The notes under the pieces were generated by a model. That model saw nothing but the letters and a program-made list of their open reading frames with translations. It had not been told where the DNA came from and ran no database searches. From an uncultured Pseudomonadota bacterium (lineage in GTDB: Bacteria > Babelota > Babeliae > Babelales > CAIQNR01), in assembly GCA_964604015.1 (NCBI GenBank), contig CAZRXF010000001.1:104156-168155 (forward strand): a DNA stretch of 64,000 bases, read 5' to 3'. The stretch's first letter is position 1; every line of letters begins with the position of its first letter. A program made the position numbers and the translations under genes. Positions 57,525 to 64,000 of this stretch are shown piece by piece.

Positions 57525-60500
57525 CTAAACAGAAGTTTCTCCTGCCAAAGCAGCTTGAGCTGCTTCATTCTGAGCGGCCGCCTTTTGTATCTTCACTAAA
57601 AGCCCCTCTATATTTCCAAGCGTAGAAGTCACCGTGTACTGAGGGTACGTTGCCAGAATCTGTTCGTAACCCTTTTGTAGTTCCTTATAATCAATAGGAA
57701 CGGATCTACCTTCTAATTTCATTCTTTCTAAATCCCATGCAAGCGGATTATCAAGCACAAACATAAGATCACGATACCGTGGATCTGCCTTCACTAATTG
57801 TCCATTAACTTCTGTATCCCTCGTTTTTCCTGTAGCAACAAGACGAGCCAGCAATTCCTCCCGTGGAGTATCGATAATGCCTGACGGCGGAATAAAGAGA
57901 GAACCTGGTACACTCAAAACCTGCGCCATAAACGTCAGGACCTGTTCATTTGAAAGCGGAGCGCCATTAGATCCCTTTTCAAACGCTCTTAACGCTTCCC
58001 TGCCAAGTGCTGGATTTGTCGATATAATGACATTGTAGGTTTTGTAGATCGTTTCATATGGATCAGAAACCGCCCGAATTTGTTTTAACTCATCCCCTAA
58101 GTTAGCCAGCTCAAAACTAACGTCATATGTTGTCATGCGCCCTTTCTGAACTTGCCGTAACAGCTCTTGCGTCCTTGTTTCAAGGTCACTAGCTCTTTCT
58201 TGAGCTCCTCGAATACCACGTTGTGTTGGGACTATCTGACTTTGAAGATAGTATGCAGGACGCCTTAAAAATTGCTGATTACTATCAGAAAGATGTATTA
58301 TCGGAAACCCATAATCCGGATGATAATAAGGATCAAAATAAACTGATAACCGCTTCCAGAACGATATAGCATCCGTCACTTTATCTTTACGAACTAACTC
58401 AAATGCTTGTTCTATATCCGATAATCGTGCGTACAAAGGAGCAAGAAGATCGTATGCCTTAAACGCTCCGTTAACACTTTGAGCAACTTTAAGTTCACTA
58501 TAAAGACCTTCACACATCGCACGATATTGATGAACCTCATGAACATACTGTCCCAGTTTTGCTCGCGTTATCGTGGAGGAATCAAGCGACAAATTGGCAT
58601 GAATGGCAAAAATATAGGCCGTTGCTCTGTCCTTAAGATCTTGAGCACGCAGCGCAAAATACAACGATTCATTATGCGCTTTGAATGCAGCTTGCTGATC
58701 AGAAGTAAGAGTATCAAACACTGCGACCATATACGATTTTTCAAGCCTTGCTAATTGAATGTCAACAGCAGCAATAGCACTCTGTAGAACACCACCCTCA
58801 TGATCTGCAAACGCTTGCCCAATGCCTGACTCGGGATCGTTTTTCATACGACTAAACTCCGTTGCGTACTGTCCGGCATCAAATTCGCCTTGCAATTTTT
58901 CTTGTTCTGCTTGAAGTACATCAAAGAACCCCTTACTATTTTTAGCGCTCTTACTCAATGCCATTTGAGCGTTTTGTAGAAATTCATTGGACGTCGACCC
59001 TTGTACATTCTCCCCCTTATGTGGGGTCAGCAATTCCTGCGCACGTGCTACAAAAGCAGATGTCGCCTTCGGATACACCGCAGTACCCCAACTTGATCTA
59101 AAACTTTCATACGCACCCTGCAATGATGTAACCACAGTCATTTTTTGACGATTGATGACATACTTAAGAAGAATCTTAAGATCCGCAATCTCACTTGCTA
59201 AGGTACTATTTTCTTGAACCATTAGTGGCAATGCTTGTTCATACGTCTCAACCGCACGTAAGAGTTGCTCAGCCAACCCGATGCTATCAATCGTATTTGG
59301 ATTATCCACGAGCTTTCCTGCAACTGTCTTCATCGTTGCAAAAGACACACGAGCTTTCTCAACAAGTGCCTGCATTTCTACTGGTAACGCTTCCTTAAAC
59401 TGTTCTAATTCTTGTTCTGCTACCTCTTGCGCCGTTACAAAAGAACCTCCATCTCCACTACTTGCTGCTCCACTTGGTACCGGCTCATCATGATGTTCAA
59501 CCACAGGCTCTGGCACCACCTGTTGCAACTCCCGAACTCGTCCAGCAAGGGCTGCCTGGTCTTCACGCACTTCATCAAGTACATGATTTTTATAATCAAC
59601 CACATGGTCAGGGAATCCTTGATTGTGGTACCTACTAATGAGCCCATCATAAAAACTTTGTAACCCTTGCTGTAAAGCTTGAATGTCCTCAGCCGTACCA
59701 GTCTGAAGCACCTGCTGAACCTGCTGATGATACATTTGAAGCTGCTTATAATCGTCTACAATCATTCGGTCATACGTCATTTGCTCAGGTGTCAAAACCT
59801 CCGGTGCTCTTAATGCTTCTTCAAGATCTTGTAATGCTCGCGCCTTCACCGTTGCCTGGATAGCAGGGAATGTAGCATCTTTAAAAAACAGAAGTTTTGT
59901 AAGTTCATATTCCGACGCTGAGAAATTAAGATTAAGGTCACGACCTACTCCCCATGTTTGAGCACGCGCAACAGTACTTTTAGCCGCCTCTAAATTACGT
60001 AAGGCAAATTCAGCCTGACCAAGCTCAGGAATCACATCCCAAACAGGCGATGCATTAAGAAATACCCTCATCCGATCAACTTCTTGCGATACCTGAGCAA
60101 CCGCCTGGGCAAATGATTGATCACTCATGCGATCAAGCGGATATCTTTTTAATAAAATAATGTTTTGCTCTATTTGCCCAATGAGCTTTCCAAGTCCCTT
60201 TTTAACCGTTGGAAGGCTTGCTGAATCTTTAACCTCATCTGCAAAGCCCGTAACAAACGTTTGCTGCCATGTCGTAAGTTGCGTCAGCAAATCCTCGGGA
60301 GCCAGAAGCGCCGATTGAAGCTTGCTCTTCTGTATACGTAACCGCTTTAAAAATGGTTCCATAAATGTCTTTGGTAGAGGTGGCGTAATACGTTCTGTTT
60401 TAACCTCTAGTTGTTCAAGCTTTGTAAGAGCTGCCTGAGCCGTTTCAATCTCTACCTCCTTTTGACCGCTCCATACCCCAAGCAATTTGCCAACAACTTT

Positions 60501-63500: not shown

Positions 63501-64000
63501 ACGATCATGCAGCCTCTGCAACGCATCAAGCAACACTTTCAGTTCTGCAATCAGATTTGGTAATACCTGTTGTTTGTAATTTTTTTTATTTATAAGAAGG
63601 CTTACTACTCTATTCTCCAAAGTTTCCTGCAATTGTTGATCCGAGGCAATATCAGCAGGCGTAACATCCTCTGCTAAATGGTGAGTAAGCGCACTTTGTT
63701 GTTTAATTCGTGCAATCGCAGCCCGTTGGTCTTCGGTCAGATGGCTCAGGGTAGGATCAGGAGCTACAGGCTTAGTAATAAGCTTCATTCCCAAAAGGCC
63801 ACGGACTTGATTCCTTCTTGTAGTAACACGATGCTTTAAAAAATCCCCCGCTCCCTTTGCGGCCTCACCGACAGCCCGTCCGCCCGCGTCCAAGGCGCTT
63901 CTTACCCCAACACGCACCAACTCCTTTCTGCTTGAAAGCACCGATGGTGCATCTGGCCCAAGAACAGGAGCATGTTCAACCACGTCCCCCGCGCTCACGC
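57525..64000 (-). CDS. Giant hypothetical protein (more than 2,157 aa; N-terminus probably beyond the window edge)
   Basis: A single uninterrupted minus-strand frame runs from the window edge to the stop at 57525. The track start at 63998 is only the first GTG inside the window. The composition (Ala/Leu/Gln/Glu/Lys-rich) suggests a largely helical protein. I saw no TM segment, signal peptide, internal repeat or recognisable catalytic motif. Confidence 0.8.
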   Translation of the reverse strand, partial: VSAGDVVEHAPVLGPDAPSVLSSRKELVRVGVRSALDAGGRAVGEAAKGAGDFLKHRVTTRRNQVRGLLGMKLITKPVAPDPTLSHLTEDQRAAIARIKQQSALTHHLAEDVTPADIASDQQLQETLENRVVSLLINKKNYKQQVLPNLIAELKVLLDALQRLHDRTQAATFEPDTFDVEGLRTDLGVMERLGTAEKLYGLLTKGKHDIANLRSAALLGDVQRGLFFSFPELPEFQQAVNRLAYGLYKKIFVPAFTKGSFEQKTAIAFMKLYDAYLKNPIQETLSAARTMYQEGPQTARPKNSGDFINPVYDVIHHEDGSTELVLKKQPSSLPDEQVDGVLRTVSEIMKTVPLTAEVLDQARTEVEKLTYNTAVYNELVSAFERVLPPSLDSLQLFVKGVKAGDTSFNMTISRLNDTVEALQRLGNIPTVSDEDRATLAKLHMAEQALGQNLRTAQGSIQEALTTLGQSDSERTQETASGLQDTMNRLFSDADKKLKNNDPVGAIRMFTSSSIMSHQLQWLTEAVGDNAQLSSQLEKIKEAIRDLGNQKDAFVQQTPSLVAIQQRSKLQQTVMQQMEAFGSSTQAGVKELEQFLKKAGVASFLAPELGRLSTGVDTAIFEAQQAARKDPLQAAQGLIKALAQLRIGFERAYAAKMQGPDSELAIKKYRVQGVIESELAALQAKEAAAQSAALASPKQGISGKGSKQGTAATAAAPFHSDTGTPTIPEKPELSEEDAAKLAAVDEQLSPIKEGYAHVKAQMVKFQQLLETKLFDDTAFEAVLAQYKQLQTDVSALPLESQKLLGLARTTYKQDLVVAPVIENYASMVSYMTHSLVPYQGLLFKLMSVREVFDTAQSILMRASKGPQQATSVWRTAESLRTLSQFSAGSFENITQFVDTKAVSLLRELGDTGLDLEKPAPLPVTASRPRPALTQEQVEKAGKTLERIETMVDGISVSRRMERITTTLSQKPLRVDDLKSAYTLYNTFQKEVPEQFAGYKQQVDAVWSGNAAAGAGEFFDQIRAQISQQEAIRKQLAKLRADYEVGLKQLKAYNLEAVPEILQAFNDADVATSSIPRIESAPAESGLRARVSSLLGWSKPAAQPVPSGPAVNLDTLGGLFFWQSGASEMEEMVRGVTETFLQDAVLKAPVRYKNAGLMLDYGRELLGMEKVVGKLLGVWSGQKEVEIETAQAALTKLEQLEVKTERITPPLPKTFMEPFLKRLRIQKSKLQSALLAPEDLLTQLTTWQQTFVTGFADEVKDSASLPTVKKGLGKLIGQIEQNIILLKRYPLDRMSDQSFAQAVAQVSQEVDRMRVFLNASPVWDVIPELGQAEFALRNLEAAKSTVARAQTWGVGRDLNLNFSASEYELTKLLFFKDATFPAIQATVKARALQDLEEALRAPEVLTPEQMTYDRMIVDDYKQLQMYHQQVQQVLQTGTAEDIQALQQGLQSFYDGLISRYHNQGFPDHVVDYKNHVLDEVREDQAALAGRVRELQQVVPEPVVEHHDEPVPSGAASSGDGGSFVTAQEVAEQELEQFKEALPVEMQALVEKARVSFATMKTVAGKLVDNPNTIDSIGLAEQLLRAVETYEQALPLMVQENSTLASEIADLKILLKYVINRQKMTVVTSLQGAYESFRSSWGTAVYPKATSAFVARAQELLTPHKGENVQGSTSNEFLQNAQMALSKSAKNSKGFFDVLQAEQEKLQGEFDAGQYATEFSRMKNDPESGIGQAFADHEGGVLQSAIAAVDIQLARLEKSYMVAVFDTLTSDQQAAFKAHNESLYFALRAQDLKDRATAYIFAIHANLSLDSSTITRAKLGQYVHEVHQYRAMCEGLYSELKVAQSVNGAFKAYDLLAPLYARLSDIEQAFELVRKDKVTDAISFWKRLSVYFDPYYHPDYGFPIIHLSDSNQQFLRRPAYYLQSQIVPTQRGIRGAQERASDLETRTQELLRQVQKGRMTTYDVSFELANLGDELKQIRAVSDPYETIYKTYNVIISTNPALGREALRAFEKGSNGAPLSNEQVLTFMAQVLSVPGSLFIPPSGIIDTPREELLARLVATGKTRDTEVNGQLVKADPRYRDLMFVLDNPLAWDLERMKLEGRSVPIDYKELQKGYEQILATYPQYTVTSTLGNIEGLLVKIQKAAAQNEAAQAALAGETSV

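Follow-up and report, generated by a model that had tools for sequence, protein, structure and literature searches.

A giant Sec-exported helical protein with an FFAT-like linker motif in an uncultured bacterium: a candidate host-interaction factor

Background

The stretch of DNA under study, hereafter the window, comprises 64,000 nucleotides of contig CAZRXF010000001.1 (assembly GCA_964604015.1) from an uncultured bacterium, and it ends inside a minus-strand gene for a protein of more than two thousand residues, here called the giant. A preliminary description, made from the letters of the window and its open reading frames (ORFs), had presented this product as domain-less and presumably all-helical. 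The question which the locus raises is whether so long a frame encodes a real protein and, if so, what kind of protein it is and what it might do. We conclude that the giant is probably a host-interaction factor of a eukaryote-associated bacterium. Our best reading, which we hold with somewhat less than even confidence and which derives from the sequence, is that the exported protein would dock on VAP, a protein of the host endoplasmic reticulum (ER).

Results and discussion

The gene and its product

57525..64000, minus strand: giant gene, coding for residues 19-2175 and the TAG stop

As had been described, a single frame runs without a stop from the TAG codon (57525-57527) to the edge of the window (57525-63998, minus strand, 2,157 codons). 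At ca. 43% G+C about 5.8% of random codons are stops, and the chance of an open run of 2,157 codons is of the order of e^-129. A protein-cluster search (5.8 billion clusters) retrieved the full product, P0001, of 2,175 amino acids; a second called version of the sequence, P0002, differs solely in one extra Met. The N-terminus lies beyond the window, as had been supposed, and the 18 residues which fall outside it are MFVRRLFLLALLWGWVGS. Extension of the contig (L001) places the start ATG 52-55 nt past the window edge, where it overlaps the stop of an upstream gene for a 495-residue protein (ATGA; ACATGATG) and is preceded by a Shine-Dalgarno-like site, GAAGGGG. The gene is real and is not a pseudogene, an outcome which the preliminary description had allowed for, because it is intact in the two called versions and in a syntenic ortholog of 35% identity. 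The composition agrees with the Ala/Leu/Gln/Glu-richness noted earlier (L 11.4%, A 11.0%, Q 7.7%, V 7.2%, E 7.1%), and there is one Cys.

The remark that proteins of this size are rare in small bacterial genomes holds only in part. The gene of one relative sits on a 1.05-Mb contig, which agrees with a small genome; an additional giant ORF (L010, 2-6112, plus strand; 2,036 residues or more) lies immediately beyond the left edge of the window, upstream of 501-1193, so that giant genes are not unique in this genome. This second ORF runs off the contig, is rich in Ala, Thr, Ser, Gly and Asn, is unrelated to the helical family by BLASTP, and is followed by a leucyl aminopeptidase gene.

Signal peptide and export

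63990..63998, minus strand: VSA, the last three residues of the signal peptide (the rest lies off the window; cleavage site read by eye)

P0001 begins with a Sec-type signal peptide, recognised by inspection, which consists of MFVRRLFLLALLWGWVGSVSA and is followed after the cleavage site by GD; its basic n-region precedes a hydrophobic core of 12 residues, and cleavage would fall after V-S-A. This is the sole strongly hydrophobic stretch of the protein on the Kyte-Doolittle scale. In keeping with the first impression, P0001 has no further transmembrane segment (no 19-residue window above 1.6), and it has no lipobox. A comparable signal peptide was seen, again by inspection, at the start of every full-length relative, and all three large operon partners possess one too. 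Twin-arginine export (RR in MFVRRLF) was rejected; the twin Arg is not conserved in the relatives. The giant is thus firmly predicted to be a Sec-exported protein. The preliminary description had favoured a surface or secreted factor, and a signal peptide completed by off-window residues, and common to the full-length relatives, bears out the export; the protein may then pass beyond the inner and outer membranes.

A small and rare family

A HMMER scan with residues 976-2175 against 1.84 billion representatives returned 12 proteins including the query, the family amounting to 12 clusters at 50% identity among ca. 15 billion proteins. The closest relative, P0003 (2,047 residues), is 38% identical over ca. 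1,170 residues (E 5e-209); nine others follow at E 1e-65 to 1e-11 and P0013 at E 1.6e-10, and P0014 (2,078 residues) was added through cluster look-up. The 11 relatives are all uncharacterised, with no Pfam domain and no informative name. P0003 can be aligned over its whole length; in more distant members the similarity is largely confined to the final 630-650 residues and a portion of the middle (phmmer), and the C-terminal module is conserved down to 24-32% identity in the 11 relatives. A GTDB genome scan with the family alignment gave one locus and a scan with P0001 alone gave none, while a metagenome scan yielded one JGI contig with a member, which was P0003 again. A word-indexed protein search proved insensitive: with P0001 alone, and again with the family alignment, as query it returned only the giant itself, and in the latter case not even the members of that alignment. 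The search for orthologs that had been suggested has therefore found 11 distant relatives and a syntenic ortholog, and the giant is not an absolute orphan.

P0001 had no Pfam match at the curated cutoff, none in NCBIfam or PHROGs, and none by sequence in the PDB. Pfam run on all 12 family members gave zero matches at E ≤0.001, and the family profile found no match in the PDB. The absence of a recognisable domain or catalytic motif, reported from the sequence, thus extends to these libraries and to fold neighbours, and profile and structure searches gave no significant match to a known giant-protein family. We considered RTX, Bap and Ig-like repeat adhesins, autotransporters, Rhs and polymorphic toxins, and nonribosomal peptide and polyketide synthases, and rejected them, as Pfam and NCBIfam revealed no repeat, beta-barrel, toxin or catalytic domain. 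An SMC/LmuB-like coiled-coil ATPase was also discarded: the PADLOC match to LmuB is weak (20.9 bits, no stretch passing alone) and covers the coiled-coil part only, P0001 has no ATPase motifs, and no SMC family is among the Pfam matches. The libraries and literature searched contain no description of any family member. By its sequence, the giant belongs firmly to a small, rare and undescribed family of helical proteins.

Modular architecture

63753..63935, minus strand: N-terminal basic segment, residues ~40-100, with family-conserved R-V-G-V..S..., then L-T-x-x-E/Q-x-A-L (alignment)
63249..63332, minus strand: recurring motif, copy 1, degenerate, residues 241-268 (RGLFFSFPELPEFQQAVNRLAYGLYKKI), read from the alignment
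60558..61760, minus strand: module like a stand-alone 495-residue protein, residues 765-1165 (BLASTP)
60579..60662, minus strand: recurring motif, copy 2, residues 1131-1158 (LGGLFFWQSGASEMEEMVRGVTETFLQD), read from sequence and alignment
59820..59903, minus strand: recurring motif, copy 3, residues 1384-1411 (LTKLLFFKDATFPAIQATVKARALQDLE), from the regular expression and hhalign
57528..59423, minus strand: C-terminal all-helical module, residues 1544-2175 (alignments and AlphaFold2 model)

Sequence and models together predict a signal peptide, a basic N-terminal segment (the first 100 residues have a net charge of +7), helical bundles with disordered linkers, an acidic Ser/Thr-rich linker and a helical module of ca. 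630 residues. AlphaFold2 was run with the family alignment and gave two models, which together cover residues 741-2175. Residues 741-1520 form helical bundles (mean predicted local distance difference test, pLDDT, 80.0; predicted template modelling score, pTM, 0.47) with disordered linkers at about 935-945, 1094-1120, 1357-1377 and 1513-1520. Residues 1520-2175 (mean pLDDT 79.5, pTM 0.56) are all-helical apart from the first 21, which are disordered. The presumption of an all-helical protein is upheld by these predictions for residues 741-2175. Foldseek searches of both models against the PDB, and of the C-terminal module against BFVD, gave nothing significant (best E 0.06-0.27, template modelling scores, TM-scores, ≤0.33). 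The C-terminal module is further marked by the family motifs VDSIGLAEQ, N.QK..VV.SLQ, LTP, ATGKT and YRDL...L.N...W...E..KLEG.

The preliminary statement that there are no internal repeats has to be amended, since weak repeats are present. Most giants contain two or three copies of a recurring motif, LL[FW]W.SS...Q..VR..A...L, and a partner protein contains one. The regular expression missed copies 1 and 2 of P0001; it matched the position aligned to copy 1 in the ortholog P0003 (ALFFKIPQQPVLQSVLQQRAF), and the site equivalent to copy 2 in relatives and in the 495- and 538-residue partners. Two consecutive modules, the region of copy 2 and the one that follows it, were also aligned by hhalign with a probability of 81.5% (E 1e-5, 77 columns).

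An FFAT-like motif in the linker

59424..59516, minus strand: disordered acidic Ser/Thr-rich linker, residues 1513-1543 (VPEPVVEHHDEPVPSGAASSGDGGSFVTAQE), pLDDT below 50 in both models
59424..59444, minus strand: FFAT/phospho-FFAT-like core, S1537-F-V-T-A-Q-E1543 (core definition from PMC7705450 and PMC9286742)

The residues of the linker with pLDDT below 50 are 1-21 of one model (protein residues 1520-1540) and 773-780 of the other. At its end, directly before the C-terminal module, lies a short motif which resembles those recognised by VAP. The conventional FFAT motif is E-F-F-D-A-x-E with an acidic flank, and the phospho-FFAT has Ser or Thr at position 4 and binds VAP only if phosphorylated (PMC7705450); Phe or Tyr at position 2 and Ala at position 5 fill pockets of the MSP domain (PMC7610837). 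In P0001 the core with its flanks reads ...EHHDEPVPSGAASSGDGG-S-F-V-T-A-Q-E-VAEQELE. It follows the FFAT core rule, with F at position 2, T at 4 and a small residue at 5, and this Thr, with a Glu three residues further on, also conforms to the CK2 pattern S/T-x-x-D/E quoted in PMC9286742.

Both the motif and its position are conserved. At the same place the relatives have TFHTGEE; SFVSAEE; SFLTAQG with TLVTAEG; SFKTPNG with TFYTAYE; SLYSATS with SFHTGDE; SFYSAQE (P0014); SLVTADE with SLVTANE; IYFDVVD (P0011) with VFYSVQG; and the near-canonical GFFDAVE (P0012). The fragment P0013 has VFYDPVE and IYHDALP after its homology to the C-terminal module. Position 4 therefore switches between D and S/T across the family, as it does between conventional and phospho-FFAT motifs, and several members possess tandem copies, as do IncV and PTPIP51. 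For a count we used a strict pattern (F/Y at 2, D/E or S/T at 4, a small residue at 5, an acidic or S/T flank, no K/R) and scanned the 60 residues before the C-terminal module in 11 members, with shuffled linkers as the null. The strict pattern is present in 7 of the 11 members against 0.41 expected (P 2e-8), and a relaxed one in 9 of 11 against 1.57 (P 4e-7); the background over the contig is 0.44 matches per 1,000 residues.

It is plausible, though we put it a little short of an even chance, that the linker is a functional FFAT or phospho-FFAT mimic recruiting host VAP and ER. Several considerations weigh on the other side. The upstream tract of P0001, EHHDEPVPSGAASSGDGG, is only mildly acidic (4 acidic residues and 4 Ser in 18), the relatives being richer in acidic, Ser and Thr residues here; the downstream VAEQELE is acidic. 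The motif is missing from P0010, and in P0004 both copies show Leu in place of Phe or Tyr at the critical position 2. Thr-x-x-Glu stands exactly where the AlphaFold2 model begins a low-confidence helix, and such a sequence at a helix start could be an N-capping box instead of a linear motif. The pattern was written after the motif had been seen, and the members are homologous, so that the counts are non-independent. FFAT-like strings are common, ca. 10% of human proteins being scored as phospho-FFAT candidates (PMC7705450), and the argument therefore leans on the conserved position of the motif. In a diderm a Sec signal peptide leads no farther than the periplasm, and the 74 kb inspected showed no secretion system. 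Lastly, no Sec-exported giant was met in what was read on the type III substrates IncV, XopM and HopN1.

FFAT-like strings were also noted in the products of two genes which flank the site of the giant gene in some relatives: at about residue 148 of 12712-13800 (minus strand; …SPDPYFDVQD…), a protein with a signal peptide, and at about residue 334 of 11388-12662 (plus strand; …FFEEEVFATGES…). Both could be due to chance at 0.44 matches per 1,000 residues.

The operon

It is firm that the giant gene closes a conserved operon whose large products are helical and exported, and that one partner is a paralogous module of the giant. The upstream genes are co-oriented and tightly packed, and encode one or two small membrane proteins of ca. 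70 residues, with two hydrophobic segments and a Cys-rich tail, followed by proteins of 952, 273 and 495 residues. The 273-residue gene overlaps the 952-residue gene by 4 nt, and its product is restricted to three clusters; the operon partners have no Pfam matches. The 495-residue protein is 22% identical over 415 amino acids to residues 765-1165 of the giant (E 4e-7, BLASTP), a region also homologous to a 538-residue protein in the related genome L003 and to a 544-residue protein in the distant locus L008 (E 8e-21 with residues 763-1021).

L003 has the same operon and the same flanks as the window genome. Its order is MerR and YchF, then proteins of 72, 70, 707, 273, 538 and 2,047 residues, and then the convergent DnaK, CarD, a DUF5122 protein and MiaA. 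In L008 a homolog of the 495-residue protein (E 3e-21) is again paired with a giant. Between these two genes L008, the P0010 locus, carries two signal-peptide paralogs of 1,281 and 1,407 residues (1947-9984, plus strand) which are 35% identical to each other and have no detectable similarity to the 952-residue partner. The small proteins at the head of the operon are paralogous too (L001 4419-4634 and 4005-4394, plus strand; L003 4884-5108 and 5140-5352); their tails read …CC.DCGSCK and …GNCCKS, they are 67% identical between the genomes, and they gave no family match.

In four further loci (L002, L004, L005/L006 and L007) the giant homolog is elsewhere, between an IleRS-526aa-437aa group and a gene for an ankyrin-repeat and RING protein (Ank-RING), with L9-DnaB-RuvC thereafter. 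This site is syntenic with the window at ca. 12.7 kb, where the present genome has no giant gene; the spot, which in the relatives lies between the homologs of 11388-12662 and of L9/DnaB/RuvC, is here a 50-bp spacer (about 12662-12712), and the giant is found beside dnaK. Either the family has changed its position or it comprises two paralogous lineages.

Rate of evolution

Amino-acid identity, window genome against L003:
DnaK: 93%
YchF: 91%
CarD: 91%
MerR: 87%
two 454-residue membrane proteins: 62-67%
273-residue partner: 58-60%
giant: 34-35%
952-residue partner: 29-34%
495-residue partner: 28-30%

Synonymous sites are saturated in every gene compared (pS, the proportion of synonymous differences, ~0.7); the two genomes are therefore not close, and no ratio of non-synonymous to synonymous divergence (dN/dS) can be trusted. 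The dN of the giant is 0.68 and that of DnaK 0.04, a difference of ca. 16-fold, and the other exported orphans lie at 0.56-0.82. An exceptional divergence of the giant between close relatives (DnaK 93%, giant 34%) was accordingly dropped as a proposition, the synonymous sites being saturated and the giant evolving like other exported orphans. Its fast non-synonymous divergence fits an exposed or host-facing protein. The best-conserved parts of the giant in this comparison are in the C-terminal module.

Probable association with a eukaryotic host

20310..21425, minus strand: 371-residue Ank-RING protein with a signal-peptide-like N-terminus, ankyrin repeats and a C-terminal RING (zf-RING_2, E 1.5e-9)
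31485..32411, plus strand: 308-residue protein with a signal-peptide-like N-terminus and a RING-variant domain (RINGv) exactly at the Pfam cutoff, 21.6 bits

The first of these is a candidate eukaryote-like E3 ligase and the second possibly another E3-like effector within the same 64 kb. To our knowledge RING E3 domains are functionally sensible only inside a eukaryotic cell, and such domains behind signal peptides lead us to infer that the lineage delivers some Sec-signal-bearing proteins into a host. At least 22 of the 56 window ORFs of 100 residues or more (~40%) start like signal peptides, as judged by eye, and an Ank-RING homolog directly adjoins the giant homolog in three related genomes (L004-L007). 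The sequences of the ankyrin+RING and RING-variant proteins thus suggest a eukaryotic host; the preliminary description, which had spoken of host-associated bacteria, gains these two proteins as support for an association which is itself deduced.

One related metagenome-assembled genome comes from wastewater or river-water data (SRP286056: wastewater). The genes of the window region include RNase Y, an archaeal-type ProRS, CarD and delta-60 repeat proteins, a set which seems atypical for classical Alpha- and Gammaproteobacteria. No rRNA, tRNA or Rfam match was found in the 64-kb window or in six related loci (139 kb).

A proposed mechanism and its alternatives

The course of events that we envisage is as follows. 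The bacterium would live with or inside a eukaryote, and the giant would be exported to the bacterial surface or into the host cell. There a host kinase would phosphorylate the Thr of S-F-V-T-A-Q-E, creating a phospho-FFAT mimic that binds the MSP domain of VAP. The host ER could in this way be held against the bacterium, its vacuole or a partner of the C-terminal module, the latter supplying a second binding activity. Crossing of the outer membrane and exposure to the host cytosol would both be needed. In its most extended form, in which a probably protist-associated lineage delivers RING E3 ligases with Sec signals, together with giants, into its host, and the giant serves as an FFAT-bearing ER tether while the 630-residue helical module and the paralogous partners bind the bacterial surface, the vacuole or another organelle, the scheme is possible but rather doubtful.

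An unlikely alternative is that the giant builds, with its three exported partners, a structural scaffold of the envelope or periplasm for the bacterium's own use; the motif would then be unconnected with the host and have a structural role, as a helix N-cap or hydrophobic staple, or mark a processing site. The four large products of the operon are all helical and have signal peptides, one partner is a paralogous module, suggesting a hetero-oligomeric assembly, and the operon genes are translationally coupled; no outer-membrane secretion signal or system was seen, and Thr-x-x-Glu does stand at a predicted helix start. Envelope scaffolds, however, are usually slow-evolving and widespread, whereas the giant changes ca. 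16 times as fast as DnaK at non-synonymous sites and occurs in a handful of genomes. An N-cap leaves the conserved aromatic residue two positions upstream unexplained, the Gly which follows the motif in most relatives (EG) is unfavourable for a helix start, and extra tandem copies occur within clearly Ser/Thr/Asp-rich linkers. The Ank-RING gene adjoining the giant gene in relatives also tells against a purely domestic role.

We regard as improbable a surface coat or adhesin under diversifying selection, serving attachment to host or prey, or antigenic variation, with no link to VAP or the ER. Such a protein might well have a signal peptide, a large size, modular rod-like helical bundles and rapid divergence, and it would be in company with other giant exported ORFs in the genome; the differing locations of the giant gene in related genomes would suit it too. 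Yet no surface anchor was found (no beta-barrel, sorting motif, lipobox or Pfam adhesin repeat), the best-conserved part is the C-terminal module, which is not an anchor, and the conservation of the motif goes unexplained. A decaying or non-functional ORF, whether a pseudogene remnant or a spurious frame, is effectively refuted: it would agree with the lack of a known domain and the very fast divergence, but not with a 6.5-kb frame open at a chance of ~e^-129, an ortholog found intact in synteny, conserved blocks in the 11 relatives, confident AlphaFold2 models, and a Shine-Dalgarno-like site with a coupled start.

Other features of the window

55560..57455, plus strand: dnaK, convergent neighbour, an arrangement kept in L003
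57483..57502 (to 57509 with T7), no strand assigned: hairpin CCGGTCC-GTAACA-GGGCCGG, candidate shared terminator of dnaK and the giant gene

The giant gene converges on dnaK, as had been described, across a spacer of 69 nt which contains a 7-bp GC-rich hairpin. This is flanked by AAA and by T7 (57503-57509); the T run behind it is T7 for the plus strand and TTTT for the minus strand. The hairpin folds at -19.9 kcal/mol (z -4.3) on the former and -14.9 kcal/mol (z -1.9) on the latter. The shared bidirectional terminator proposed earlier agrees with the folding and with the T runs on both strands; a consensus terminator scan did not list this hairpin.

In the carD-dnaK interval (51239-54693, plus strand) two 454-residue membrane-like orphans flank a 125-residue signal-peptide protein. 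All three are kept in L003 (62-67% and 45% identity, respectively) and have no Pfam or NCBIfam match. Tandem paralogs occur among 25693-28847, 34431-37221, 37290-38914 and 47219-50378 (all minus strand): five or six small signal-peptide proteins (24-29% mutual identity), three EamA-like transporters, two YmdB-like phosphoesterases beside RNase Y, and two delta-60-repeat (DUF5122) propeller proteins (63% identity).

Comparison with known systems

In its serial all-helical bundles the giant recalls eukaryotic helical-bundle rods such as vinculin, alpha-catenin and the importin-like solenoids. The Foldseek values were E 0.13 for vinculin, 1.4 for the HMP-1 M domain and 0.06 for karyopherins, none significant and with TM-scores ≤0.16, and the likeness is one of secondary-structure class only, not relationship. 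Vinculin/catenin-like, karyopherin-like and MUN-domain-like folds were rejected, no Foldseek match having E below 0.06. Even if the reading of the motif should fail, the locus provides a new exported helical family, two confidently modelled folds without structural relative, and in its conserved four-protein operon a way into the biology of a little-known lineage with small genomes.

FFAT mimicry by bacteria is already known; the architecture of the giant and its export route would be new. The mimics that we found in the literature (IncV, CbEPF1, XopM and HopN1) belong to pathogens in culture, and all but CbEPF1 are type III effectors. Xanthomonas XopM and Pseudomonas syringae HopN1 are type III effectors with FFAT motifs which bind plant VAPs (PMC11631713, PMC12411717). 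They illustrate that FFAT mimicry recurs independently in unrelated bacterial effectors; as type III substrates of plant pathogens they are unrelated to the giant in sequence and are not giant helical proteins. If the proposal is true, the hijacking of ER contact sites is older and more widespread among protist-associated bacteria than is known, and effectors could reach the host cytosol without those systems, by a new delivery route for effectors of membrane contact sites.

Coxiella burnetii CbEPF1 has two FFAT motifs, binds VAP and tethers lipid droplets to the ER, with an amphipathic helix that targets the second membrane (PMC11624262). The combination of an FFAT element with a separate targeting element matches the logic proposed for the giant. 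The two are not homologous, differ in size, architecture and presumed export route, and no lipid-droplet-targeting element was identified in the giant.

A close parallel to the linker is IncV of Chlamydia trachomatis, a tether between ER and inclusion which binds VAP and has a phospho-type core, S-F-H-T-P-P-N, and a canonical one, E-Y-M-D-A-L-E, and whose upstream Ser tracts serve as the acidic tract once phosphorylated (PMC9286742). Here, as in the giant family (S-F-H-T-G-D-E, T-F-H-T-G-E-E, S-F-V-T-A-Q-E, often in tandem and after Ser/Thr/Asp tracts), the FFAT-like sequences lie in a disordered Ser-rich region. IncV, however, is a type III-secreted protein of the inclusion membrane with transmembrane and cytosolic domains, whereas the giant has 2,175 residues, a Sec signal peptide and no transmembrane segment. 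A chlamydial Inc protein was rejected as an identity for the giant, which has no hydrophobic transmembrane domain beyond the signal peptide by the Kyte-Doolittle measure given above. There is no homology between the two, and VAP binding has been shown for IncV and is predicted for the giant. Should the reading of the linker hold, the giant would be an analogue, not a homolog, of IncV and CbEPF1.

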